From assembly GCF_041248615.1 (NCBI RefSeq), contig NZ_CP158426.1: a DNA stretch of 64,000 bases; one strand, 5' to 3'. The first letter of the stretch is position 1, and every line of letters starts with the position of its first letter. The notes under the pieces were generated by a model. It searched no databases. It saw only the letters and a list, made by a program, of their open reading frames with translations, and was not told where the DNA came from. The DNA is from Escherichia coli. Lineage in GTDB: Bacteria > Pseudomonadota > Gammaproteobacteria > Enterobacterales > Enterobacteriaceae. Shown here piece by piece: positions 1-51,012 of this stretch. The translations under genes were made by a program, and so were the position numbers.

Positions 1-77
1 GCATGGCTATGGATTGATAAATGATATCAAAACGTATCAGCTAGTTTCCACGGTTAGAGAAGATGGCTATTATACTT

Positions 78-107
78 CAGAAACGGAACAACAGCGTTCC
101 GTTTCTG
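78..107. repeat. Perfect 12-bp inverted repeat with 6-nt loop (CAGAAACGGAAC-N6-GTTCCGTTTCTG)
   Basis: Read directly from sequence; lies upstream of the first operon; no clear T-run so not a classical terminator. Confidence 0.5.
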
Positions 108-389
108 ACGGACTGATTCTTCCGTAAATTCAGGTGTAAATCGTGGTGTGCCCATACGCTCCTCCTATGCTCAAACTATAGGGCAGGATCGTCTACCGGG
201 GTGGGGTCAGTCCACCAATGACTGAGAGGTGTCTGTTAAACCCGTGGCGATTCAGACATTACTCTTCCTATGTACACTGGAGTAGATTGAATAATCATAT
301 AATAATCAATCGGTTGAAATCATTTAGGGCTTTTGTATTAATAGTATTGAGATGGTTTGGTCATGGTTCCAGTTCATAAGGAAATAGTT

Positions 390-1442
390 ATGGGAATTAG
401 TGTTCGAGTCTTGCAAGCAAATCATGGTGATTGTTTCTTAGTTAGTTATAAGAGCTCAGATAGTGTTTACAACTTGCTAATTGATGGTGGTAATAGCGCC
501 ACATTTATGTTTGGGGCTCAAGGGCGCTACAGTGGTGAGCTTAAATGTGTACTCGATGATTTGAAAAAAGAAGGTCAGAAAATTGACTTGGTTATCTTAA
601 CCCATATAGATGATGATCATATCGGTGGTTTGCTTAGGGCTTTTGAAACACCAGGTTATCTATGCCAAATGGCTTCTTCTATCTGGTTTAATTCTTCAAG
701 ATTTATCACCAAACATTTTAAGGTTGATGAAATTTCAGACAATGATGTCTGTCTTCAAAGTAACTCAACGCAGACAAGTGCTAGGCAAGGGAAGAAACTG
801 GAAAACTTACTTGATGAAATCAATTGCGAACGGCAACCCATAGTTATTGCGGGGCAGAAGTTTACAAGGGGTCCGTTCACATTCACGATCTTATCCCCTG
901 AAGAAGATAATCTACGTAGCCTTCTTCATAAGTGGCCAGATGAGCCAGATCCGGTTACGACATCCGGTGCTTCAAGGGATTATGGAATGAAATTTGAGGA
1001 TATTTTGTCTAATGATAAATTCCAGAGTGATCAATCTGTTTATAATGGTAGCTCAATTGCTTTCATCCTTGAAGCTGATGGTAAGGCTATGCTCTTTTTG
1101 GGCGATTCACATGATGAAAATATTGTCCGTAATTTACGATCTCTTGGTTTTAATGAAGGTAACAAGCTCAAACTCGACCTCGTGAAAATTTCTCATCATG
1201 GTAGCCAGTATAATACTAGCCCTGAATTTTTGTCGCTCATAGATGCGCAAAACTTCATTATATCCACTAATGGGAGTAAGCACGGACTTCCTGATAAGAG
1301 AACTATTGCACGGATTTTATCTTCAGGAGAAGGCAAAATCGGCTTCAATTATTCGCACATTATCCAGGAGATGCTTCACGAAAATGAGGTTCCATTGTAC
1401 TCTTCTCGCCTGGTAGCATTAAATGGAGAAATTAGGCTATAA
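390..1442 (+). CDS. Metallo-beta-lactamase-fold hydrolase (ComEC/Rec2-like MBL family)
   Basis: ORF track 357..1442; ATG at 390 preceded by AGGAAA; motifs LVILTHIDDDHIGG (variant of HxHxDH) and KISHHGSQYNTS typical of MBL-fold enzymes; AT-rich. Confidence 0.7.
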   Translation: MGISVRVLQANHGDCFLVSYKSSDSVYNLLIDGGNSATFMFGAQGRYSGELKCVLDDLKKEGQKIDLVILTHIDDDHIGGLLRAFETPGYLCQMASSIWFNSSRFITKHFKVDEISDNDVCLQSNSTQTSARQGKKLENLLDEINCERQPIVIAGQKFTRGPFTFTILSPEEDNLRSLLHKWPDEPDPVTTSGASRDYGMKFEDILSNDKFQSDQSVYNGSSIAFILEADGKAMLFLGDSHDENIVRNLRSLGFNEGNKLKLDLVKISHHGSQYNTSPEFLSLIDAQNFIISTNGSKHGLPDKRTIARILSSGEGKIGFNYSHIIQEMLHENEVPLYSSRLVALNGEIRL

Positions 1443-1443
1443 A

Positions 1444-2727
1444 ATGACCGCTTCAAATTTGATGGCTTCTAACGCAGTGATCGTGAACGAGGGCAGTGGT
1501 GTTCTTGTTAATGCGATGACTCAAGATTATTCATACGTACTCACAGCAAAACATGTGTTAGCGAAATCAGGTAGTCAAAATATCGTTACTAATCAATATG
1601 GTAACAGTCTTAGAGTGCTTGATGTATTGGTGGGTCAGGAAGAGCATTGCGACTGTGCTGTAATCAAAATTGAATATGTACCAACTGTTGCTCAGCAGTC
1701 CTTCCCTGCAATAGCATTACCCAATTCGGCTTTGCTAAAGTTTGTTGGTTTTCCGGGAACCGAGAGACTAAGCGCTACCCCGCTGAAAATCTATGATGGG
1801 CATGTAACAGATGTAAGGGAGGGGCTGATTAGCTTCACGATAGAAGGCAGTCCCTCAAAAACCGCAATCGATGGAATGTCTGGCGGTGGAATGTATTACA
1901 TAGTTAATGAACATCCCCTCCTTGTTGGTGTAGAATTTGGGATGGACAGTATTCGTCAAGATCTACAATATGGACGTATACAATGTAAAAGTTTAATTGT
2001 TTTTGAAGAGATAATTAATTTAAACAGTGCTGCTCCAATGGTTCCCGCTTATTTGGAGTGTTTTTCACGCTTAAAAGAATATATCTTCGATTTTAATGTT
2101 GTTGATAAAAATAGAGTTCTGAATCTGAAAAACGCATTAAATATTTTTGCAGATGAACTTATAGACAAAGGTATGCCACCACCATTTGAATTAATGTCCA
2201 AATACAAAACTGATTTGTTAGTAGGTCCATATCAAGTTGACGATGTTAAAAATAAAGAATTATGGGTTGCATATTTTGAATTTCTGATAATTTGCGCAAT
2301 TCTTGATAATGTAAGTATTGCCAATAGTTCTTATATAGAAAGTTTAGAGCGGCGTAGGAGAATTCTTTATACTCCGGATGGAAGTAATTGGGTCGGAAAG
2401 CTTGATGTAATCTTAAAAGTTGCTCGAAAGTTATTAGATAAAGATGGCATAGTAATTGTGGCATCTCCAGAAAATGGAGCCGAATTATTACCGGATGATT
2501 TTGAAGTCGATAGGGTTATAAGGAATATTGCGCGAATCGCTAATTCAGGTCCACTTGCTCCTATCGATCAAGTTGAAAAAGAGATGTATAAGAGTTTTGT
2601 ATTAACGCATCTTGAAGGGCTGAGAAAAAAATGTGTTATAAACAAAGAGAGAATGTATGCAGAAGTTGAAGCTGGCTTAGACCAACTTCAGACGTTTAAG
2701 GAAAGCTTTAATGAATTTATTAAATAA
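1444..2727 (+). CDS. Trypsin-like serine peptidase with uncharacterised C-terminal domain
   Basis: ORF track 1423..2727; ATG at 1444 directly after upstream stop (TAA 1440-1442); candidate triad His (LTAKHV), Asp (CDCAVIKI), Ser (GMSGGGMYY); about 240 aa C-terminal extension of unknown fold. Confidence 0.7.
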   Translation: MTASNLMASNAVIVNEGSGVLVNAMTQDYSYVLTAKHVLAKSGSQNIVTNQYGNSLRVLDVLVGQEEHCDCAVIKIEYVPTVAQQSFPAIALPNSALLKFVGFPGTERLSATPLKIYDGHVTDVREGLISFTIEGSPSKTAIDGMSGGGMYYIVNEHPLLVGVEFGMDSIRQDLQYGRIQCKSLIVFEEIINLNSAAPMVPAYLECFSRLKEYIFDFNVVDKNRVLNLKNALNIFADELIDKGMPPPFELMSKYKTDLLVGPYQVDDVKNKELWVAYFEFLIICAILDNVSIANSSYIESLERRRRILYTPDGSNWVGKLDVILKVARKLLDKDGIVIVASPENGAELLPDDFEVDRVIRNIARIANSGPLAPIDQVEKEMYKSFVLTHLEGLRKKCVINKERMYAEVEAGLDQLQTFKESFNEFIK

Positions 2728-3262
2728 AGAATTTGATTTGGAATTTCTTAAATCTAGATTTTCTGATGCAGATTTCTATTTTTTTGTTTCTAATGATGAC
2801 TCATCTTATATTTCATGCGTAGCATGCTATTGTGAGAGCGCTAATTACGTGGTTGCGAATTGGACAGCGATTCAGAATTATTTATCTGCTTACTACCAAC
2901 CGAAGGATGAATTAGCTCTTTGGAATATATATTTAGTTTTCTTTTGTTCCGAAAAATTACCGATTTGGGATAAGTACCTTATAGATAATGATAAGTATTC
3001 TGTCAGAAAATTAATTATTGACGGGTTAACTACTCTGCCAAGTATTTCCGAAACTGTAACTTTTCTGAACAATCATCTGCTAGGCGCAGACCTAGAATTA
3101 ACTGAAATAGAGGAGAAGAAGGAGATAGAGTTATCATTAATTGAGTATATAAGTGGAACTCCTTTAGATTCAAAGGTTGAGTCGAGAGATGAGCGTATGA
3201 GCAGAATTGATAAAATTATTAATCTAGTGAGTTCAAATAAAAATGAAAATAAAAAAAGTTGA
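2711..3262 (+). CDS. Hypothetical protein, 183 aa, middle gene of candidate operon
   Basis: ORF overlaps upstream gene by 17 nt and downstream gene by 20 nt (translational coupling); no recognisable motif. Confidence 0.5.
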   Translation: MNLLNKEFDLEFLKSRFSDADFYFFVSNDDSSYISCVACYCESANYVVANWTAIQNYLSAYYQPKDELALWNIYLVFFCSEKLPIWDKYLIDNDKYSVRKLIIDGLTTLPSISETVTFLNNHLLGADLELTEIEEKKEIELSLIEYISGTPLDSKVESRDERMSRIDKIINLVSSNKNENKKS

Positions 3263-6200
3263 AATAGAAGGCTTTCGAGCATACAGATTCAAGGAAGATG
3301 GTACTTTCGATTTTACAAATAAAGATGATACGCCATCCAATTTTGTAGCGATCTATGCACCCAATGGCTTTGGAAAAAGTTCATTCTATGATGCGGTTGA
3401 ATGGGCTATTACTCATAATTTAGATAGATTTGCGGGTGAATATAATAAAAAAAATTATGAGCAAGCTGCCAGGAGCACGAAAGAGGACGGTGTTGCACAA
3501 AAAATACTACGTAATAAAGATGTACCAGACAATATTCCTACTCGTGTAACAGTTTTCACTACTTTACCAACTCCATTCGAACAAAGTTTAGGAACAGTTC
3601 GTTCTGATTCTAGAGATATAAGAATCGGCGAGAATAAAAATAAAATCAATGGCTATTTTAGAAAAGTGGTTCTTAGTCAAGATGAAATAGACCGTTTTTT
3701 AAAAGAAGCAAAGCCGCAAGATCGTTATAAGATGTTTATGGAGAGTTTTGGAGGTGAATGGGAAAAGGCGAGACAAGAGCTAACTATACTATTGAATGAC
3801 AATAAGGCGGTTTTGTTAAATCTCGAAAAAAACAAAAATGAACTTCAGGAACAACTAGATCAGCCTGTTGATGCGTCAACATTCATACAATTTAATAAAA
3901 TAGCATCTGAACTTGTAGCAGAAGGTGAAAGTTTACCATTAGTAGATGAAACAACTATAGTTAATACACAGCATGAGCTTTTGGAAAAAATAATCACAAG
4001 AAGTCACGAAATAAATTTTTCCTTAAACAAGAAAAAAATATTGAGAGATTCGATTTCTGAGTATATTTTAAAATTTCCTGATATCAGTTTTCGTACAACC
4101 CAGATTATCGAGAAAAAGAATAGACTAGAAAAAATAAATAAAGGGATAGAAGATGTCGGTCGTTATAAGACATTTCAGTCTACTCTTGAAAAACTGACTA
4201 TCGAAAAGAAAAAGATAAGTCAGAGCTTAAATTTTATAGAAGAATTAGATGGTTTATCCCAAGAGTTTTTAAGCTTGGAATTTAACTTGGAATCAGCTCG
4301 AAAGAAACATAGAGAGATTTCATATAATTATGAAAATGAAAAAACTCTCCTTGATAATTTATTCCAAACAAGAAACCAAAATGATGCTGATTTATCTTCA
4401 ATTGACAAGCGATGCTTATCTATACGTTCTACGTTAGAAAACGCTACGGTTACTTATTCTAATATATCTAATATACAAAATAAAATTTTAAATATAGTTT
4501 CTACGCAAACAGAATTAGAGCACAAACTTAATCAAGTTAGATCCGAATACCAAAAAAACAAATCCGAATTAAACAAAGTATCAGATTTAACAATAACCGC
4601 CAAATCATTACTTTCATCAGACTTAAGTCTAATTGATTTATCTTCAGATTTATTAAAAGAACTAAACAACTTATCGCAAGAACTAAATATATTGGTCCTA
4701 CATGATCAATCAATTCATAACACACAAGAATCTCTTTCTGCACAAATGGGAGTTCACGAACGTCTAATTGCATCGGGCCTTGAGTACTTAAGTTTATGGC
4801 CGACTAATATATGTCCTTTATGTCACAAGCCGCATGACTCTGAGTCCTCTCTTAGAGAACAAGTAACAAATACTGACGTAATATCCATGCTTAGTAAAGA
4901 GAATGCAGCTAAGCTCGAGATATCCTCAAAACGGCGGTCAGAGTTAAATGGCAAGATAGAATCCATCGTACAGAAAGCCCTTGAAATTAAAATGAGTAAA
5001 CTTGAGGTATTAAGTAAAAAGGTCAATCAACAAGGAAATGAGATACATCGAGAAGAACAGCACTATACAGCTCTTTTAGCAGAAAAACAGTCTGTCCAAA
5101 ATCAGTTAAACGAGTTGCAGAAGGCTGTAGCTGGACTAACTAAAGATGAATTATTAGCTCGCTTAGATGCTGAACTTAAAGAATTAGAGGCCAAGAAAAA
5201 TGAAGTGATAAAAAACAAGCTGACCTTGACGAAAAATATTAACGTTAAAAGAACGTTGATTACAGAGTTAAGTGGGGCGATCAATTTACTTAATACGCAA
5301 ATTCATGAAATGATGTCATCATCTAACTATTTAAAAACAAAAGCTTACTCTGAAGAAAATGGCTTGTCATCGGAGTTTTTGAAAGAACATTATGATGATA
5401 AACGCCATTTTTACCTTAAAAATATAAATGGACTCAATTTTGAGATTAATAATATTACCAGCCAATTAAATGATCTTCAGAAAGCTATGATAGCCGATGA
5501 AATGTGGCTGGATTATGAAGAAATGATTTCTGAAAAAGAGAATTTCGAGGATTATATTTCTAAATCAGAAGCGGTTTTACAATCTTATTCATCATTATTA
5601 AAGCAGCATTTTGAACTACCAAAATATGAATCTTTAGTTGAATTGAAAGATTTCCTGATAAGCTCACTTGATAAAGAAACTAGGCTTTATAATGGTCTAG
5701 AGGAACGGCTTGGAAAATATAATTTATTATCAGAACTTTTGAAAACAGCAGAGTCGTTTGTAAAAAGTATTAAGTTGCAGAATGATATTAATGAAACCTT
5801 AGGTCTTATAGAAATAAGAAAAGAAGTTGATTTAGCTCTGACTAAGGAACGAAATCAAGTAATAGAGGAACTTAGAAACTTGATAAAATCTTTCTTTTAT
5901 GAGGAACTCATTAATTCTATTTATAAGAGAATAGATCCACATCCATCACTTAAGAAAGTGGTGTTTCGCCCAGATTTTGACTCATCAGATAAACCTGGTC
6001 TTAATATAGTTGTCAGTGATGAAAAAGGTGATATGGTATCTCCAATATTATTCTTTAGTGCAGCGCAATTAAATATTCTAAGCCTTAGTGTCTTTTTAGC
6101 AAGTGCTTTGCATGCAAAAGATGATAATGGAAATGTAATTGATGTGATTATGATTGATGATCCAATTCAATCAATGGATTCAATTAATATCCTATCCACA

Positions 6201-6380
6201 ATTGATCTTCTTAGAAGTATTACCGTTAGATTCAACAAACAAATAATAATATCAACACATGACGACAATTTCTTTGGCTTGCTCCAACGTAAAATCCCTT
6301 CGGAAATATTGGGTGCCAAGTTTCTTAAATTGGAGAAATTTGGGGTTGTAGTGCCTGTTGATGATTTAAATAATACATGA
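3243..6380 (+). CDS. SMC/Rad50/RecF-like ABC ATPase with long coiled coil and central CxxC motif
   Basis: N-terminal Walker A YAPNGFGKSSFYDAVEWAI; long K/E/L/Q-rich coiled-coil middle; CPLCHKP near centre; C-terminal signature-like FSAAQLNILSLS, Walker B VIMIDDP, His-switch ISTHD. Confidence 0.8.
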   Translation: MKIKKVEIEGFRAYRFKEDGTFDFTNKDDTPSNFVAIYAPNGFGKSSFYDAVEWAITHNLDRFAGEYNKKNYEQAARSTKEDGVAQKILRNKDVPDNIPTRVTVFTTLPTPFEQSLGTVRSDSRDIRIGENKNKINGYFRKVVLSQDEIDRFLKEAKPQDRYKMFMESFGGEWEKARQELTILLNDNKAVLLNLEKNKNELQEQLDQPVDASTFIQFNKIASELVAEGESLPLVDETTIVNTQHELLEKIITRSHEINFSLNKKKILRDSISEYILKFPDISFRTTQIIEKKNRLEKINKGIEDVGRYKTFQSTLEKLTIEKKKISQSLNFIEELDGLSQEFLSLEFNLESARKKHREISYNYENEKTLLDNLFQTRNQNDADLSSIDKRCLSIRSTLENATVTYSNISNIQNKILNIVSTQTELEHKLNQVRSEYQKNKSELNKVSDLTITAKSLLSSDLSLIDLSSDLLKELNNLSQELNILVLHDQSIHNTQESLSAQMGVHERLIASGLEYLSLWPTNICPLCHKPHDSESSLREQVTNTDVISMLSKENAAKLEISSKRRSELNGKIESIVQKALEIKMSKLEVLSKKVNQQGNEIHREEQHYTALLAEKQSVQNQLNELQKAVAGLTKDELLARLDAELKELEAKKNEVIKNKLTLTKNINVKRTLITELSGAINLLNTQIHEMMSSSNYLKTKAYSEENGLSSEFLKEHYDDKRHFYLKNINGLNFEINNITSQLNDLQKAMIADEMWLDYEEMISEKENFEDYISKSEAVLQSYSSLLKQHFELPKYESLVELKDFLISSLDKETRLYNGLEERLGKYNLLSELLKTAESFVKSIKLQNDINETLGLIEIRKEVDLALTKERNQVIEELRNLIKSFFYEELINSIYKRIDPHPSLKKVVFRPDFDSSDKPGLNIVVSDEKGDMVSPILFFSAAQLNILSLSVFLASALHAKDDNGNVIDVIMIDDPIQSMDSINILSTIDLLRSITVRFNKQIIISTHDDNFFGLLQRKIPSEILGAKFLKLEKFGVVVPVDDLNNT

Positions 6381-6406
6381 TTTATTTAGTGTGTTAACCA
6401 TAAAAT

Positions 6407-6440
6407 AAGAACTGGGCCAGTGACGACCCAGTTCTTATTT
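6407..6440 (+). terminator. Hairpin terminator after ATPase gene
   Basis: AAGAACTGGG-N10-CCCAGTTCTT followed by ATTT, 27 nt after stop at 6380. Confidence 0.5.
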
Positions 6441-7696
6441 ATAGGGGAACCTATTTTTATCGCAATAAATTAAGAGCGAAGATATGGTGAAAATTGTTAA
6501 AATATGAATTTTTTTAATTTTTTATCTAAAGCCCCTGTTTTCATTATCGTATAAATCAATCTGGACGATTTGTTCTTCAGGTGCAAGGGTATCCGCAAAC
6601 TAGCGCAGGCTATCACCGCCTATAAGCTCCAGAATATGATCAAGTCCATGCCCTCCTGACAACCCAATCGCCTGTAATGACCATTCAGGAATGATTTGCT
6701 CTTTTGATGACTCAACCACAAATGTATCGAGCTCAGTCTTTGCTTAGAGCAGAATTTGAGCCCAAGACTTCCACTCGTATCATCGTAGGTCAGCGTTTCT
6801 CAGAAAATAACCCATGTAACCACGGCATCCGTCTCCGAATGTTATCCTAGAAACAATATTGAGGGGGGAATGTAGAATCATAACCTCTGAATTAACGTAG
6901 ATTAAATCATTCGATCTAAATCAGAGCATTCATAGTGATGGTACACTCAGCACCAGACAAAGATCTCTAGGGGTTTGTTCTAATAAACATGGCCCTCATT
7001 CCTTCTGGTGAAATTCGGAATCTGATTGCGTAGGATAATTACATCCAGGAATCGGGCTAGCATTACAGCCCCCTAAGGGTGTTGTTTGCAACGGTTCATG
7101 TTTGTCTGAGTAACTATATTCCTGAATGTGTTGCTCCGAATTTACGGATTGCCTTGCAGAAAAGGGCTGTTCTGGCGTTGTGCTTTGAAAGGCGTACACC
7201 TGAGGAGCACAGAGCCACAGGAAGGGCAGTAGGGTGCAGCGGGCGAGTACATTCATATATTCTCCAGACAGAATTCATACCAATTATATGATATGCCAGA
7301 TTGACTCAATAAAGCGTTAACGAAGAACGAAAATATAAGACCAGGTATAGAACTCGACATGCCGATAGTCGCCGGGAAATATCGTGGCCAGATTTTTTGT
7401 TAATGCTCATAGTCAGGCAACAAGGGTCGCTGCAGTAATGACTTCTGAACCTTATAACAAATTTCGGCACGACACTTTTATCATCTTTTTCATAATAAAA
7501 CCTCCGTTTTTGTTTTAATCGTCCTCCGGATGTTTCGGACATTGGATGCCCGTAACATCCGGAGGCTGCGGGTGCGGGCGGCAAAGAGCCCGTGAAGATG
7601 CCCGGAATGAATGGCAAACCCCCTCAGGAATGAAGAAAATACGCAATCAATGCTGGGGTGCTTTGTTGATCACTTTTACTGAAGTACTTTTCTATC

Positions 7697-8416
7697 TCAG
7701 AAGTAGGTTGTCCAGAAAGAGGAAACTGGCATCGCCAGTACCAATGCAGGAAGCATACTGGCTACCGGGAAGACCTTGATACCGGAAATACGCAGGCCGG
7801 TCGCCACCATTAGAACGCCACCCACAGCTGAAAAGTCGGCCTGCATGGCAGGCGTGGTCAGGGGCAATATATATATCGCGCTGTAGGCGAGTGCTAACTG
7901 AATGATAAGCTGGGGGAAAGCGACTAATGCCACGGCGTAACCCAGGGTTGTGGCAAAAATGAGGGCGGTCAGCAAATCCAGGAACGCTTTCGCGATAAGG
8001 ATACTCGAGTCCCCGGTCATGCCTTCGTGCATCGCACCAAAAATACCGGTGCCACTGGCACAAAAAAGGACGATGATCGCCACATAGTTTTGTAAAAACT
8101 GCGCCTGTGAGTCTTTGTCTCCGGGATCGCTTTTCACGACGAGCTCCACCAACCCACGGGCTTGTCCGCCCAGGTGGCTTATCCCTTTTTCCAGATAGCA
8201 GAGCTCGCCCACCAGTGTGCCGAGAAGGACCGATAGAACCATGACGGGCATATGGCTGACACTTGTCACAAGGACGATCCCCATACACAGGGAGGCAGCA
8301 CCAAAAATGAGCGGCATTGAGGTACGTAACCTTTCAGGTAGACGTGAGCTAATGATGGCTCCTGCCATCCCGCCGATCACGACGGCAGAGCCGTTGAACC
8401 ATGGGCCTGTAATCAT
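7697..8416 (-). CDS. DUF554 family inner-membrane protein (YqgA-like)
   Basis: Hydrophobic 239-aa ORF; recalled similarity to E. coli YqgA including NYVAIIVLFCASGTGIFG and ILPLTTP; overlaps UbiX-like stop by 4 nt. Confidence 0.7.
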   Translation of the reverse strand: MITGPWFNGSAVVIGGMAGAIISSRLPERLRTSMPLIFGAASLCMGIVLVTSVSHMPVMVLSVLLGTLVGELCYLEKGISHLGGQARGLVELVVKSDPGDKDSQAQFLQNYVAIIVLFCASGTGIFGAMHEGMTGDSSILIAKAFLDLLTALIFATTLGYAVALVAFPQLIIQLALAYSAIYILPLTTPAMQADFSAVGGVLMVATGLRISGIKVFPVASMLPALVLAMPVSSFWTTYF

Positions 8417-9027
8417 AGCGATTTACTCCTGTTATTCAGGTTGGGAGTTTCACCCCAGCGCGGCAATGTGTCGCAATCAAGGTCGAGTAAACTCAGCGCC
8501 CGCGCAACACTATGAGCGAAGATGTTCTCAGTACTTGCAGGGCGTGCATACCAGGCAGGTACGGGTGGAAAAATGATGCCGCCGGTTTCGGTAACCTGAA
8601 GCATGTTACGAAGGTGCCCGGTATGCAGCGGCGTTTCCCGTACCATCAGAACCAGCCTCCGGCGCTCTTTCAGGGTCACATCGGCTGCCCGCACCAGCAA
8701 ACTGTTGGTTAAGCCCGCCGCAACAGCGGCGAGGGTGTTCATAGAGCAGGGGACAATCAACATCCCGGATGCCCTGAACGAACCGCTGGCGATGTCGGCT
8801 GCAATATCATCAAAGGGATAAATTACATCAGCCAGCTTATGAACGTCGTCTTCTGACAAAGTGGTTTCCAGACTGCGGGTCAGATGAGCGGCAGGAGAAA
8901 TCACAACGTGACTTTCCACGTTAAGTTGTCGCAGATAACGCAGGGCCTGCACTCCATATAAAAAACCGGATGCACCACTGATCCCAATGATGACGCGCTT
9001 GCGAGGAGAACATTCAGATGTCGACAT
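8413..9027 (-). CDS. UbiX/Pad1-family flavin prenyltransferase
   Basis: N-terminal VIIGISGASGFLYG motif typical of UbiX; 204 aa; directly downstream of UbiD-like gene. Confidence 0.85.
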   Translation of the reverse strand: MSTSECSPRKRVIIGISGASGFLYGVQALRYLRQLNVESHVVISPAAHLTRSLETTLSEDDVHKLADVIYPFDDIAADIASGSFRASGMLIVPCSMNTLAAVAAGLTNSLLVRAADVTLKERRRLVLMVRETPLHTGHLRNMLQVTETGGIIFPPVPAWYARPASTENIFAHSVARALSLLDLDCDTLPRWGETPNLNNRSKSL

Positions 9028-9037
9028 TATGGCGTCC

Positions 9038-10522
9038 TCAGTACTTGAAGTTATCCGGGAGGAAACGACTGATCTCGACCTCCATGAATTCGCTGCGGCG
9101 AAACTGGCCTTTCATCGTGAACGGAACGGTACAGTCGAAAATAGTTTTACAGGCGATCCCGTGGTCGCGGACGGAGTAACTAAAAGCCGGGTCAGAGGAC
9201 GGATCGAGGGGATGGCACCTTACGCCGGGTATGAACACCGTGCTGATATCCCCCTGATAGCGTGTCGTCATTGCCCATATCACGTCATTGAGATCGAAAA
9301 TATCCACATCGTCATCAACCAGAATCACATGCTTGAGTTCCGAGAATGCGGAGAAGGCCAGAAGAGCCGCCTGGCGCTGACGACCTTCATCGTTTGGCAG
9401 ACGTTTTTTCACCTGCAATACGGCAAGATATTTTCCGGTCCCGGGTGACGGGCAGTGAACATTTTGCACAAAGCCGGGAAGGGCGCGCTCCACCAGTTGC
9501 AGAATACTGGCCTCGGTGGGGATCCCTGCCATATTGGTATGCTCGTCACTTGGACCAATGCAGGTCTGTAGAATTGGGTGACGGCGGTGGGTGATGGCTT
9601 TCACTTTTATCACTGGCACCATTTGCTGTGCCTGTCCGGTATAGCCGGGGAATTCCGGCATGGCTTTACCACTGTTGGTATTTTGATCCTCCCTGACCCG
9701 ATAGTTAGGAATGAGTTCCCCCTCGATAACGACTTCGGCGTTCGCAATGGCCCGGGCATTCACGGTCAGACACTGGCACAGCTCAACAGGCTGTTTACGC
9801 AAGCTCCCTGCCACTGACAGTTCGTCAAAACCAAGTGGAGTTGTGGGCGGTTCGAAGCAGGCACCGATTTCAATGGCTGGGTCAACACCAATGCTGATCG
9901 AGATGGGAAGTGGGGCCCCATCTTCCTCTGCTTTCTGACGGAACAAATCCAGATGCCGACCGGGAACGAAGTACATGGATATTTCATCCCTGTTTTGCAC
10001 GCACAGTCGGTGAATAGTGATGTCATGCTCGCCGGTATGTGGATCGGCGGCGTAGCACATACCGAGAGTGAAGTAAGGACCGGCATCCTCCGGCGTATTC
10101 GTGGGTGCTGGCAGGATATTGAGGATACTGAAATCCGGATCGGATGCCAGATGGACTACTTCCTGACAGACGGCATTTTCCTGCGGAATAACGACAGGAC
10201 TTATCGGGGTGCTTACCGCGTCTTTCAGTAAAAAGGCCAGCTTATCGGGTGTGGTATCCAGTAGCCGGGCCACGCGTTTTCGCGAGGCGAGAAGACCTAT
10301 CAGCACTCGCATATCGGTATAGCCTTTAATCCGGTTAAAGAGCATGGCTGGACCGATACGAGTCGGACGCATGACCGTACCGTGTGCCCCAATGTAGCGG
10401 TACACCCCTGACAGTTCTGCACTTGGATCAACGGGTTCATCGGTTTCGATAAGCTCATCATCAAACTTGCGCAGTACGGCCAGCGCACTGCGTAGGTCAG
10501 TCACTTTTTGTGTTTGAGACAT
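9038..10522 (-). CDS. UbiD-family (prFMN-dependent) decarboxylase
   Basis: 494-aa ORF with UbiD-like size and sequence character; paired with UbiX-like gene as in non-oxidative aromatic acid decarboxylase operons. Confidence 0.8.
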   Translation of the reverse strand: MSQTQKVTDLRSALAVLRKFDDELIETDEPVDPSAELSGVYRYIGAHGTVMRPTRIGPAMLFNRIKGYTDMRVLIGLLASRKRVARLLDTTPDKLAFLLKDAVSTPISPVVIPQENAVCQEVVHLASDPDFSILNILPAPTNTPEDAGPYFTLGMCYAADPHTGEHDITIHRLCVQNRDEISMYFVPGRHLDLFRQKAEEDGAPLPISISIGVDPAIEIGACFEPPTTPLGFDELSVAGSLRKQPVELCQCLTVNARAIANAEVVIEGELIPNYRVREDQNTNSGKAMPEFPGYTGQAQQMVPVIKVKAITHRRHPILQTCIGPSDEHTNMAGIPTEASILQLVERALPGFVQNVHCPSPGTGKYLAVLQVKKRLPNDEGRQRQAALLAFSAFSELKHVILVDDDVDIFDLNDVIWAMTTRYQGDISTVFIPGVRCHPLDPSSDPAFSYSVRDHGIACKTIFDCTVPFTMKGQFRRSEFMEVEISRFLPDNFKY

Positions 10523-10651
10523 TACGTTTTCCTCAGTAAGTCGCCGGGAGACAGCATGCCCGGTGTGCTTTTATCTTCATCCTGCAGGCAATCACAGGAC
10601 GAGCCGTTACATCACTGACAGTATGTGAGGCAACATAAATCCCCGTCTAAT

Positions 10652-10675
10652 CACATTAACGACGTTTTTAATGTG
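10652..10675. promoter_or_regulatory. Interrupted palindrome CACATTAA-N8-TTAATGTG, candidate LysR-type regulator binding site
   Basis: Located in divergent intergenic region between the UbiD-like operon and the LysR gene; dyad of the kind used by LTTRs. Confidence 0.4.
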
Positions 10676-10710
10676 GGATTGTTATCGAAAAATAGTGATT
10701 GGAGGAACGT

Positions 10711-11592
10711 GTGGACTATCGGTATTTGCATGCATTTGTGGTGCTTGCCAGAGAACTGCATTTTGGAAAAGCCGCACTGCGGCTCAACATCACGCAGCCA
10801 GCCTTAAGCCGTCAGATTAGAGTGCTGGAAGATCAGCTTGGCATGGTGCTATTTACGCGTGATCGTCGTCATGTGGCGCTGACTGTGGAAGGAACTCAGC
10901 TTGCAGCGGAGGCGCGGAGCGCCGTCAGTCATTACGAAAAAATGCTGAGCCGTGCGAGTAGCCTTCGAAAAGGCTATAAAGGACAACTCATACTGGGTTA
11001 TGTCGGATCTTCCATTCTTGATCCCGCCCTGACACGGTTAATCACCTGTTTTCGCGAGACTAAACCGGATGTTGAGATTGTTATTGAGGAGCACAACGTT
11101 GACGAACAGCTCACCCTCCTGCTCGACCATCAACTGGATATGGGGCTGCTCCGATCGCCTGTTCCGCATTTTGCCAACCTGGACTACGTGGATATCGCCA
11201 CCAGGTCACTCATCGCCGCAGTACCGCACACGCATCCGCAGGCAGGAGTCGGTAAAATAGAGCTGGAGACGTTGTCCGGGGATACATTTATGATCCAGAA
11301 AGATCCGCCCGGGGTCGGGCTAGGCTGGTCTGCATTACATGCCTGTGAGATGGCCAGTTTTGTCCCACCCAAAATCTATTTTACTCGCGATGTTGCGGTG
11401 GCTATTGGCATGGTGTCGATGGGAATAGGAGTTACGCTGGTGCCAGAAACCCAGCGTTCTGTAACGTTGCCTAATGTCTGCTACTGCCTGCTGCACGATC
11501 CCGAGGTCACAACGACCTTAACGCTTTGCTGGCCGAAATTCAGGAAAAGCAGGGAATTGATAGAGTTTGTACGCTCTTTAACGCTTGGTTGA
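10711..11592 (+). CDS. LysR-family transcriptional regulator
   Basis: N-terminal HTH LHFGKAALRLNITQPALSRQIRVLEDQLG; GTG at 10711 with GGAGG 5 nt upstream (ORF track starts at TTG 10699); divergent from decarboxylase operon. Confidence 0.85.
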   Translation: MDYRYLHAFVVLARELHFGKAALRLNITQPALSRQIRVLEDQLGMVLFTRDRRHVALTVEGTQLAAEARSAVSHYEKMLSRASSLRKGYKGQLILGYVGSSILDPALTRLITCFRETKPDVEIVIEEHNVDEQLTLLLDHQLDMGLLRSPVPHFANLDYVDIATRSLIAAVPHTHPQAGVGKIELETLSGDTFMIQKDPPGVGLGWSALHACEMASFVPPKIYFTRDVAVAIGMVSMGIGVTLVPETQRSVTLPNVCYCLLHDPEVTTTLTLCWPKFRKSRELIEFVRSLTLG

Positions 11593-12412: not shown

Positions 12413-13357
12413 ATGACTATGTCCCTGCATACCAAGATAAGTGCCCCTAACACGACAGCGGCGACCAGCGTATCCTCGCTGGATCTGTCAGGCTCCTCAA
12501 AAACGAAATGTTCAACAGCCAGAACCGATATTTATCAGACTGTTACCGACAGCATAATTGCGGCGCTGGAAACCGGAGTAAAACCTTGGGTGTGTCCTTG
12601 GCAGCGAGCTCCCGGTATGTCCGGTTTACCGTCCAATTACGCCACTGGTAAGGCTTACAGCGGAATGAATATCATGTTGCTTTGGTGCAGCGCGTCAAAA
12701 CAGGGATTCTGTGATTCACGCTGGATGACCTACAAACAGGCAAAAGCGGTAGGTGGGCAGGTGCGCAAGGGAGAACACGGCACTACCGCGATTTTCTATA
12801 CCACGCTGGAAAAGGAAAATGATAACGGAGAAACTGACTATATTCCTATGCTGAAAGCATTCACTGTGTTTAATGTTGAACAAATTGACGGTTTACTCCT
12901 GAGTGATGATGCCGTTTTTCCGGCAGAGATCTTTGAGCCATTACCACGTGCAGAAGCACTTTTTCGTAGTAGCGGTGCAACCATTATTGAAAAAGGACAG
13001 AATGCTTTTTTTACACCATCAACCGACGAAATTCGCTTACCTGAACGGTATCTTTTTATTGATGCTGCTAATTTCTACGCAACCGGCCTGCATGAGCTCG
13101 TTCACTGGAGTGGGGCAAAAAGTCGGCTGAACCGTGAAATGAAAGGGAAATTTGGCAGCGAGGGGTATGCGTTTGAAGAGTTGATCGCTGAGCTGGGGAG
13201 CGCATTCCTGATGGCGGATCTGGGGATAGTTGGAGAAGTTCTGCATGACAGTTATATCGCTTCCTGGCTTAAAGCACTGAGGAATGATAAACGCTATATT
13301 TTCAAGGCCGCCAGCGCGGCATCGAAAGCACATCGCTATTTGATGGATAAAAGCTGA
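12413..13357 (+). CDS. ardC: ArdC-like antirestriction protein (ssDNA-binding N-domain plus zincin-like metallopeptidase C-domain)
   Basis: DIYQTVTDSIIAALETGVKPW N-terminal ArdC-type motif; HExxH motif GLHELVHWSG in C-terminal half; hairpin after stop. Confidence 0.75.
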   Translation: MTMSLHTKISAPNTTAATSVSSLDLSGSSKTKCSTARTDIYQTVTDSIIAALETGVKPWVCPWQRAPGMSGLPSNYATGKAYSGMNIMLLWCSASKQGFCDSRWMTYKQAKAVGGQVRKGEHGTTAIFYTTLEKENDNGETDYIPMLKAFTVFNVEQIDGLLLSDDAVFPAEIFEPLPRAEALFRSSGATIIEKGQNAFFTPSTDEIRLPERYLFIDAANFYATGLHELVHWSGAKSRLNREMKGKFGSEGYAFEELIAELGSAFLMADLGIVGEVLHDSYIASWLKALRNDKRYIFKAASAASKAHRYLMDKS

Positions 13358-48422: not shown

Positions 48423-49694
48423 CTAGCCAGCTTGAAGCGTCGTTTTTCCTCTCCCCAGTATGTAGGGCGGTACATAGGATTTGCGGCAAGTATCCAGATA
48501 ATCCGACCACCACTGCATCATTGCCTTTCTTGCTTCCAGATGCTCTGCTCTGTGAATATATGCCTGGCGTACGGAGTTACGTTCCTGGTGGCTCATTTGC
48601 CGTTCAACAGCATCCTGTGACCATATACTGGATTCCATAAGGGCACTGCATGCCATTGTCCTGAAACCGTGACCACAGATTTCCATTTTCGTATCCCAGC
48701 CCATCAGGCGTAGCGCCTTGTTCACCGTATTTTCACACATGGGTTTATACGGATTATGGTCCCCGGGGAACACGAGTGCATTATCTCCTGAGATATCCTT
48801 AATCTTTTTCAAGATCGCGATCGACTGTTGTGAGAGGGGTACGATATGAGGCCTGCGCATTTTGGCACCACGACCAGAGTAACGCACGCCTTCAATAGCT
48901 TCGCGCGTGGCGGGTATTGTCCAGACCTGGTTTCCGAAATCAATTTCATGCCAGCGGGCAAAACGCAATTCACTCGAGCGAATGAACAGATGCAGTGTTA
49001 GCAGGATGGCAAGGCGAGTGAGTTCACGGCACTGCTGAAAACTCTCAATGCTCTCAAGCAGTTCTGGAAGACGCTCCAGTGGTAGAGCGGGGTAGTGTCG
49101 TTTTACTGGTGGAGCCGTCACTCCGTCAAGGTTTGCTGCCGGATTAAAATCGATTAATCCATGATGCACGGCGTAGCGCATGATATTCCGGAGGTGCTGG
49201 CGTGTACGGGATGCAACTTCCAGGAGACCCTTTTCCTCAATTCCTTTTAATAAAGTGATGAAATGGCGGGGTTTCAGTTCTGAAACTGACATGGTGCCAA
49301 TGACTGGGAAGATATGATTATTCATGCTGGCGAGCAAACGGTCGGCGGTGTTCTCTGACCATTTTTTATTGCTCTTGTGCCATGCAAGTGCAACGTTTCT
49401 AAACACTTTCTTTGGCATGCGAGAACTGCGTTCGGCTGCTCGCTGCTCTGCTGGATTGATGTTCAGTACCAGCATTTTGCGAATACCTTCACGTTGACTA
49501 CGGGCGTCTGAGAGGGAGATGACTGGGTAGGCACCGAGTGCAATACGTGATTCTTTACCCTTAATACGGTACTTGAGATACCAGTGACGTGAACCGCCAG
49601 GTTTGACCAAGAGATACAGACCGTGGGAATCGGAAACTTTAAAGGGTTTATCAGATGGTTTGAGACTGCGGATTTTGGTGTCGGTAAGAGACAT
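48423..49694 (-). CDS. int: P4-type tyrosine integrase (tRNA-adjacent)
   Basis: 423 aa; N-terminal arm-binding-like region, C-terminal catalytic domain; 161 nt from tRNA-Asn 3' end. Confidence 0.9.
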   Translation of the reverse strand: MSLTDTKIRSLKPSDKPFKVSDSHGLYLLVKPGGSRHWYLKYRIKGKESRIALGAYPVISLSDARSQREGIRKMLVLNINPAEQRAAERSSRMPKKVFRNVALAWHKSNKKWSENTADRLLASMNNHIFPVIGTMSVSELKPRHFITLLKGIEEKGLLEVASRTRQHLRNIMRYAVHHGLIDFNPAANLDGVTAPPVKRHYPALPLERLPELLESIESFQQCRELTRLAILLTLHLFIRSSELRFARWHEIDFGNQVWTIPATREAIEGVRYSGRGAKMRRPHIVPLSQQSIAILKKIKDISGDNALVFPGDHNPYKPMCENTVNKALRLMGWDTKMEICGHGFRTMACSALMESSIWSQDAVERQMSHQERNSVRQAYIHRAEHLEARKAMMQWWSDYLDTCRKSYVPPYILGRGKTTLQAG

Positions 49695-49855
49695 ATGGGG
49701 TCACTCCATAATAGAACGAACCGGACCCCAGATTTGACCACCAATTTTTCCCGATGCGGAGGATAAAATCAAAATGCATCAGGAGAAGTTTTCACGCTAA
49801 GCTGTTGTATTAAAACCATAGAGGCATTAATGAATGCTGCACGAAAACAAGAATT

Positions 49856-49931
49856 TGGCTCCTCTGACTGGACTCGAACCAGTGACATACGGATTAACAG
49901 TCCGCCGTTCTACCGACTGAACTACAGAGGA
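49856..49931 (-). tRNA. asnT: tRNA-Asn (anticodon GUU)
   Basis: Reverse complement reads TCCTCTGTAGTTCAGTCGGTAGAACGGCGGACTGTTAATCCGTATGTCACTGGTTCGAGTCCAGTCAGAGGAGCCA; matches recalled E. coli tRNA-Asn; next to mtfA as at the E. coli asnT locus. Confidence 0.95.
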
Positions 49932-50922: not shown

Positions 50923-51012
50923 GGAGAGATGCCGGAGCGGCTGAACGGACCGGTCTCGAAAACCGGAGTGGGGGCAACTCCACCGGGGGTTCAAATCCCC
51001 CTCTCTCCGCCA
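50923..51012 (+). tRNA. serU: tRNA-Ser (anticodon CGA)
   Basis: 90-nt GGAGAGATGCCGGAGCGGCTGAACGGACCGGTCTCGAAAACCGG...CCCCCTCTCTCCGCCA with long variable arm. Confidence 0.9.

Follow-up and report, generated by a model that had tools for sequence, protein, structure and literature searches.

The DNA analysed here, which we call the window, is a 64,000-nucleotide (nt) stretch of an Escherichia coli genome (RefSeq assembly GCF_041248615.1, contig NZ_CP158426.1). It is 100% identical to the chromosome of E. coli NRZ14408. At 390–6380 on the + strand lie four coupled open reading frames (ORFs), all intact, which encode a metallo-beta-lactamase (MBL)-fold hydrolase, a trypsin-like protease, a small protein and a long SMC-like ATPase. 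A first-pass annotation, made from the letters of the sequence, placed these ORFs correctly and proposed that they form an undescribed conflict or anti-phage system. We conclude that the locus is very probably an intact four-gene Lamassu anti-phage/anti-plasmid system of the long family and the Hydrolase-Protease subtype, carried as cargo of an integrative conjugative element (ICE), in which a protease would activate a pro-nuclease.

The first gene (390–1442, +) encodes the MBL-fold hydrolase component, a protein of 350 amino acids (aa) that is putatively a ComEC-like, probably gated, pro-nuclease. Its start has a good Shine-Dalgarno sequence (AAGGA, 8 nt upstream) and is identical to the RefSeq start. 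The second gene (1423–2727, +; 434 aa) encodes the protease, called protease-LmuA here. It is followed by lmuC (2711–3262, +), which encodes the 183-aa LmuC, the middle component 1 of ABC-three component (ABC-3C) systems, and by lmuB (3243–6380, +), which encodes the 1045-aa long LmuB, an ABC ATPase that resembles Rad50/SbcC and has a zinc hook in its long coiled coil. As called, all three gene junctions overlap, by 20, 17 and 20 nt in order, the last placing lmuC directly upstream of lmuB. The gene for protease-LmuA has a second ATG at 1444, 1 nt past the stop of the MBL gene, which would give a protein of 427 aa. We favour this second start from sequence comparison, because the PADLOC alignment of the protein begins at residue 8 and because the orthologues in two related loci (L002 and L004) are so arranged. 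The junctions had been described as overlaps of 17 and 20 nt or direct abutment; the overlaps stand, and abutment occurs only if the protease starts at 1444.

The left edge of the cassette is set at 273, where the copies shared with other E. coli strains begin, so that 273–389 (+) is the leader and the probable promoter region. The operon is closed by the hairpin of an intrinsic terminator at 6403–6440 (+), as first described. The hairpin starts 23 nt beyond the lmuB stop codon and has a 14-bp stem with a folding energy (dG) of −23.6 kcal/mol (z −3.83); 1 of 200 shuffled sequences folded as well. A consensus scan gave promoter and terminator counts at chance level and called no promoter within 273–389. 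It also overlooked the real terminator, because the loop is long for a simple scanner, and RNA folding recovered it. An Rfam search of window 1–8000 found nothing. The G+C content (GC) is 0.28–0.41 across window 1–6500 versus 0.52–0.54 from 7500 on, which bears out the earlier remark that the operon is AT-rich relative to its neighbours.

All four proteins match Lamassu models of PADLOC end to end. The evidence here consists of profile hidden Markov model matches of the individual proteins to the PADLOC-DB library. The MBL protein matches LmuA model PDLC03854 (E 6.8e-125; residues 2–349 against model positions 2–344 of 345), and protease-LmuA matches LmuA model PDLC03855 (E 1.2e-122; 8–434 against 1–425 of 425). 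LmuC matches PDLC03873 (E 1.8e-44; 1–178 against 1–180 of 180) and LmuB matches PDLC03865 (E 1.6e-269; 1–1039 against 1–1006 of 1007). The required Lamassu components are thus all present, adjacent and on the same strand. Since every component matches, standard defence-finding tools should call the locus. Searches of the four proteins against NCBIfam gave sub-threshold matches only (Avs1a, ComEC, DegS/DegP and SMC) and no usable name. AVAST type 1 was considered as an identity and rejected: the four proteins have no STAND or NACHT domain, and the NCBIfam Avs1a model scores 207.5 bits against a cut-off of 420.

The Pfam domains lead to the same kind of system under another name. ABC-3C systems (Krishnan et al., 2020, as described in papers that cite it) consist of an ATPase, Middle Component 1 (MComp1, PF20289) and an effector with the C-terminal domain CTD4 (PF20280), and all three are found here. 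The same Pfam trio is present in two related loci (L003 and L004). RefSeq names the protease-LmuA gene of E. coli NRZ14408 ‘ABC-three component system protein’ and lmuC ‘ABC-three component system middle component 1’; the MBL gene is named ‘ComEC/Rec2 family competence protein’. The names ABC-3C, from the nomenclature of Aravind, and Lamassu denote one kind of system. The first-pass annotation was therefore right to assign the locus to SMC-like ATPase defence systems of the Lamassu/ABC-3C type. Its claim of novelty does not survive, since a described system confidently matches the locus as a whole: judged by these matches, the locus belongs to the long Hydrolase-Protease subtype of Lamassu, which is already known.

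Haudiquet et al. (2025; PMC12663957) split Lamassu into short and long families. In their survey, long LmuB has the Walker B motif hhhhDD, always a single CxxC zinc hook and typically ∼800 aa. They propose that long Lamassu derives from SbcCD, and they report that long LmuC is similar in structure to the C-terminal domain with which SbcD binds SbcC. The only validated long Lamassu is that of Bacillus cereus B4077, which has Hydrolase-Protease effectors. This validation is attributed by PMC12663957 to Millman et al. (2022), and the bioRxiv text of the latter does not mention B4077.

LmuB of the window has the traits of the long family. Pfam places AAA_23/SMC_N at the N-terminal end and AAA_13 at the C-terminal end. 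The P-loop APNGFGKS (39–46, with the lysine at K45) fits the classical pattern [AG]x4GK[ST]; its first residue is Ala versus the Gly of the Walker A form Gx4GK[S/T]. The Walker B sequence VIMIDD (968–973) conforms to hhhhDD, and a stretch of ∼750 aa that is poor in proline and glycine separates it from the P-loop. A CPLC motif at 524–527 (window 4812–4823) is the sole CxxC, and the protein has just three cysteines. The motif is found halfway along the 1045 aa, in the middle of the coiled coil, as a zinc hook would be. The H-loop reads STHD. All of these motifs are kept in the orthologue of Shewanella halifaxensis (43% identity), with an identical P-loop and VILIDD as Walker B. LmuB therefore combines a Walker A motif, Walker B hhhhDD and exactly one CxxC within the coiled coil. 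The ATPase had been thought too long for a LmuB, an objection that falls away because the matching PADLOC model itself has 1007 positions.

Among Protein Data Bank (PDB) entries, the sole relative of LmuB by sequence is Rad50, with a weak match, which agrees with the proposed descent of long Lamassu from SbcCD. LmuC carries MComp1 (E 1.3e-9). Neither LmuC nor protease-LmuA has a PDB match by sequence. Since these searches returned none of the solved short Lamassu structures, the latter are evidently too distant to detect by sequence.

The two remaining proteins form the effector pair. The MBL protein matches Lactamase_B in Pfam. In the PDB it comes closest, in sequence as in fold, to ComEC MBL domains and Pce; a confident AlphaFold2 (AF2) model (mean predicted local distance difference test score (pLDDT) 84.4, predicted template modelling (TM) score 0.87) aligns in Foldseek with 9ic4, a ComEC MBL domain (E 8.9e-11; TM score 0.71 normalised to the target). 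The metal motif HIDDDH (72–77) is of the ComEC type. Conservation was assessed in 35 homologues at 56–71% identity. Among these the motif is invariant save for one I73V and one D75A, neither at the ligands H72, D74, D76 and H77. Conservation extends to the SHHGS and GDxHD motifs. The protein also matches the PADLOC models for Avs1a (E 1e-49) and for the DRT-associated MBL (E 6.6e-57).

Relative to the ungated ComEC domain, the stretch from HxDxDH to HHGS is ∼70 residues longer. The AF2 model has exactly two disordered segments (pLDDT <50), both inside this longer stretch, at 117–129 and 183–193, flanked by I115 and I205. I115 (in EISDND) is invariant and I205 (in DILSND) is at least 90% conserved among the homologues, and the surrounding loops vary. 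Protease-LmuA has a Trypsin_2 domain at 24–157 and CTD4 at 190–406 (E 8e-52). Its triad H44, D77 and S153 (GMSGG) is kept in the Shewanella orthologue (53% identity). The gene that directly follows the MBL gene thus encodes a defence protein with a trypsin domain fused at its N-terminal end. According to Pfam, the MBL protein has no C-terminal domain or other domain for coupling to LmuB/LmuC.

This arrangement is that of a published module. In Hachiman, AVAST, Lamassu and DRT systems, an MBL gene upstream of a trypsin-domain fusion marks a gated pro-nuclease with its activating protease (Tuck et al., 2025; PMC12799240). The gated nuclease is a proenzyme in which two disordered insertions lie over the active site. 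Each insertion contains a conserved isoleucine (I118 and I218 in HamM; I134 in Avs1a), and cleavage by the partner protease on the C-terminal side of this residue yields an indiscriminate DNase (PMC12799240). An independent preprint describes the same module, ABC-3C systems included, and distinguishes a serine ‘KSS’ type of cleavage site from an isoleucine ‘IS(G)N’ type (bioRxiv 10.1101/2025.09.03.673762). In sequence and in the predicted model, I115 and I205 match the published cleavage sites in position and chemistry (HamM I118 and I218, Avs1a I134, ‘IS(G)N’ type). The first-pass annotation had found no named system with this gene order and effector pair; both are those of Hydrolase-Protease long Lamassu (PMC12663957), with the MBL gene upstream of protease-LmuA (PMC12799240).

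The cassette is rare in E. coli and conserved across genera. The same four genes, in the same order and of similar size (LmuB 1043–1065 aa), occur in S. halifaxensis, Azotobacter beijerinckii and a plasmid of Acinetobacter ursingii. The S. halifaxensis and A. beijerinckii copies are flanked by other mobile or defence-like genes. In S. halifaxensis, the Lamassu operon is directly followed by a ResIII/DEAD helicase-like gene and a VspR-like gene (L003 14123–16076), possibly another defence-island neighbour. In E. coli, 9 of 5426 complete genomes contain at least 80% of the locus. Four of the nine copies are ∼100% identical, and five are 90% identical over window 273–6587 with other downstream neighbours. 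Because the ∼90% copies begin at 273, end at 6587 and have different downstream neighbours, the cassette behaves as a unit. In E. coli 2018-06-4CC (L007 3156–4130, near window 2200), the IS30-like element ISApl1 interrupts the protease-LmuA gene at a point between the parts for the trypsin domain and for CTD4, and the sequence indicates that Lamassu is probably inactivated in that lineage. Seven plasmids match LmuB, mostly in part and two over the full length; four of the seven are predicted to be conjugative. A search of a phage collection found no LmuB homologue.

The window carries most of the ICE to which the cassette belongs. A 25-mer from within tRNA-Asn (49856–49931, − strand) had no second copy, and a k-mer scan then gave a 22-bp exact direct repeat, AGAATTTGGCTCCTCTGACTGG, at window 49850–49871 and at L001 18109–18130, 1.9 kb upstream of window base 1. 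The repeat overlaps the 3′ end of the tRNA. The two copies are probably the att sites of a ∼51.7-kb tRNA-Asn ICE. Between them lie a tyrosine integrase (48423–49694), a VirB-type type IV secretion system (T4SS; ∼24.8–39.7 kb), MobC and a coupling protein (20.3–23.0 kb) and an ArdC anti-restriction gene (12413–13357). The att-like repeat, the integrase and the T4SS support the earlier placement of the operon in the variable part of an ICE. The Lamassu cassette is ∼2.2 kb inside the distal end of the element, just past an IS3-family remnant (72–254). This remnant lies directly upstream of the cassette and shares ∼91% identity with the IS3 copies of many E. coli genomes. In E. coli FDAARGOS_1337, an IS3-family transposase is directly upstream of a 90%-identical copy.

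Other genes of the window were noted in passing. No gene is annotated in the ∼1.25 kb (6441–7696) that separate the Lamassu terminator from the DUF554 gene; an unannotated 86-aa ORF at 6996–7256 (− strand) has a signal-peptide-like N-terminus and no PADLOC match. Further along the ICE, window 7697–11592 (GC ∼0.53) encodes the DUF554 protein, a UbiX/UbiD-family decarboxylase pair and a divergent LysR regulator. The GC of this metabolic module, set against the AT-rich defence cassette, suggests that the ICE cargo is a mosaic of different origins. Outside the ICE, a gene for a 444-aa FRG-domain protein (59702–61036, − strand) matches the PADLOC candidate defence family PDC-S15 (E 7e-99). It lies in a lambdoid prophage integrated beside tRNA-Ser (50923–51012) and, on this match, may be a second defence gene in the window.

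The proposed mechanism combines the Lamassu model with the gated-nuclease model, and each of its dynamic steps is inferred by analogy with published relatives. In the model for short Lamassu, a LmuB dimer and LmuC sequester the C-terminal domain of LmuA, and DNA sensing leads to LmuA release and oligomerisation. In the present system, two LmuB protomers, dimerised through the CxxC zinc hook and complexed with LmuC, would hold the CTD4 of protease-LmuA in the resting state. The complex would sense DNA ends, replication intermediates or similar structures of foreign DNA and hydrolyse ATP. Protease-LmuA, once set free, would oligomerise through its C-terminal domain, and this would switch on its trypsin-like domain. 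The protease would then cut the separately encoded MBL pro-nuclease after the conserved isoleucines, probably I115 and I205, in the two gating insertions. The cut would expose the ComEC-like metal site, and the resulting indiscriminate DNA degradation would abort the infection.

Several points weigh against this reading. The evidence on the locus comes from sequence and predicted structure. Proteolytic activation of the MBL enzyme has been demonstrated for Hachiman and AVAST and is extrapolated to Lamassu (PMC12799240). The sequestration and tetramerisation model derives from short Lamassu with Cap4 effectors, and our sequence search of the PDB found no long Lamassu structure. In the AF2 model, I205 falls outside the disordered segment, in a short helix predicted directly behind it. 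It is accordingly possible, though we think it unlikely, that the long system works in a different way from the short Cap4 systems: it might, like SbcCD, sense replication intermediates that form hairpins or cruciforms, its protease might cut other substrates besides the MBL protein, or its chief service might be to the ICE in competition with other mobile elements.

The first-pass annotation described an ATP-driven sensor with two candidate effectors and an adaptor. An SMC-like ATPase defence system is indeed what we find. The question is whether the protease is a parallel effector, in which case the same Lamassu would have a protease that degrades host or phage proteins and an MBL hydrolase that acts, unprocessed, on another substrate. 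The catalytic motifs of both enzymes are intact and PADLOC calls both of them ‘LmuA’, which would suit such a pair, as would the fact that the cascade has been demonstrated in no Lamassu. But the MBL protein is better explained as a substrate of the protease than as a second parallel effector, because it has no C-terminal domain with which to dock to LmuB/LmuC. It also carries two insertions with conserved isoleucines where homologous pro-nucleases are cut. Furthermore, published nuclease and protease trees co-vary, and nuclease swaps across cleavage-site types abolish function. By sequence and by analogy, the most likely role of protease-LmuA is to activate the MBL pro-nuclease, and we consider independent action of the two enzymes distinctly improbable.

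Two other readings concern the purpose of the locus. It could be a housekeeping module for DNA uptake or DNA repair, as might be read from the ‘ComEC/Rec2’ name of the MBL gene, from the ComEC MBL domains that are its nearest solved relatives, and from the Rad50 match and the proposed SbcCD origin of LmuB. We give this almost no credence. With 35.3 bits, TIGR00361, the ComEC equivalog, stays below its cut-off of 190, and only the MBL nuclease part of that model (positions 556–633 of 663) aligns with the 350-aa protein, so the competence label was rejected as a function. SbcCD/Rad50-Mre11 repair was rejected too: none of the four proteins is an Mre11/SbcD-type metallophosphoesterase, and no SbcC or SbcD model of NCBIfam matched. 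Nor does a housekeeping role fit AT-rich ICE cargo that is so rare in E. coli and disrupted by ISApl1 in one lineage, or matches to defence-specific models with E values down to 1e-269. Alternatively, the system could be a Lamassu that serves chiefly in competition between mobile elements or in maintenance of the ICE (by plasmid elimination or exclusion, or by addiction), with phage defence as a secondary role. The cassette is cargo of a conjugative element, near ArdC and T4SS genes, type II Lamassu DdmABC acts on plasmids as well as phages, and the predicted conjugative plasmids that match LmuB point the same way. Against this, the validated relatives were scored on phages, and sequence does not separate such a role from phage defence; the two are not mutually exclusive. 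We judge a chiefly mobile-element role to be very unlikely, and keep to a Lamassu that would act against phages and plasmids through a protease-to-nuclease cascade.

As a discovery the locus has low value, since its subtype already has a name, has been surveyed and has one validated member. The locus is of practical use as an intact, E. coli-native copy from the least-studied branch of Lamassu, which is long, zinc-hooked and close to SbcC. Coupled to it is what would be the protease-to-pro-nuclease cascade, so far demonstrated for Hachiman and AVAST only. This makes it convenient material for a structure of long Lamassu and for proof that LmuA oligomerisation switches on a protease that ungates a nuclease. 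The locus also adds to the known cases of defence genes carried at the distal end of tRNA-Asn ICEs.

Among known systems, the locus is most directly compared with the long Lamassu of B. cereus B4077. By its published description, that system is likewise made up of four parts, namely an MBL-like hydrolase, protease-LmuA, LmuC and a long LmuB. Unlike it, the present copy is gammaproteobacterial and on an ICE. LmuB here shares the Walker B hhhhDD and the single CxxC of long Lamassu (PMC12663957) and is longer, at 1045 aa versus the ∼800 aa typical of the family; the PADLOC model and the orthologues are of the same large size. Compared with ABC-3C systems, we found no differences, and the ATPase, Middle Component 1 and a CTD4-ending effector are all present.

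Short Lamassu with Cap4 effectors, such as Vibrio cholerae DdmABC and Salmonella enterica LmuACB, would share by analogy the logic of sequestration, release and oligomerisation. They differ in most of their parts. Their LmuB has ∼600 aa and another Walker B motif, their LmuC is helix-turn-helix-like rather than MComp1, and the C-terminal domain of their LmuA is of a family other than CTD4. They also have a single nuclease effector, in contrast to the protease-to-nuclease cascade proposed here. SbcCD/Rad50-Mre11 resembles LmuB in its coiled-coil ABC ATPase of about equal size with a central CxxC zinc hook. Unlike SbcCD/Rad50-Mre11, the present locus lacks an Mre11/SbcD phosphoesterase, has DD rather than DE in Walker B, and is mobile, rare, AT-rich and coupled to putative abortive-infection effectors.

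The effector pair has its closest parallels in PflHamMAB (Hachiman) and EpiAvs (AVAST type 1), where the gene directly after an MBL gene likewise encodes a defence protein with a fused trypsin domain (PMC12799240). The MBL protein shares with HamM a ComEC-like fold and two disordered insertions with conserved isoleucines, I115 and I205 here and I118 and I218 in HamM. The sensors differ: HamB helicase in Hachiman, a STAND NTPase in Avs, and the SMC-like LmuB/LmuC in the system described here.

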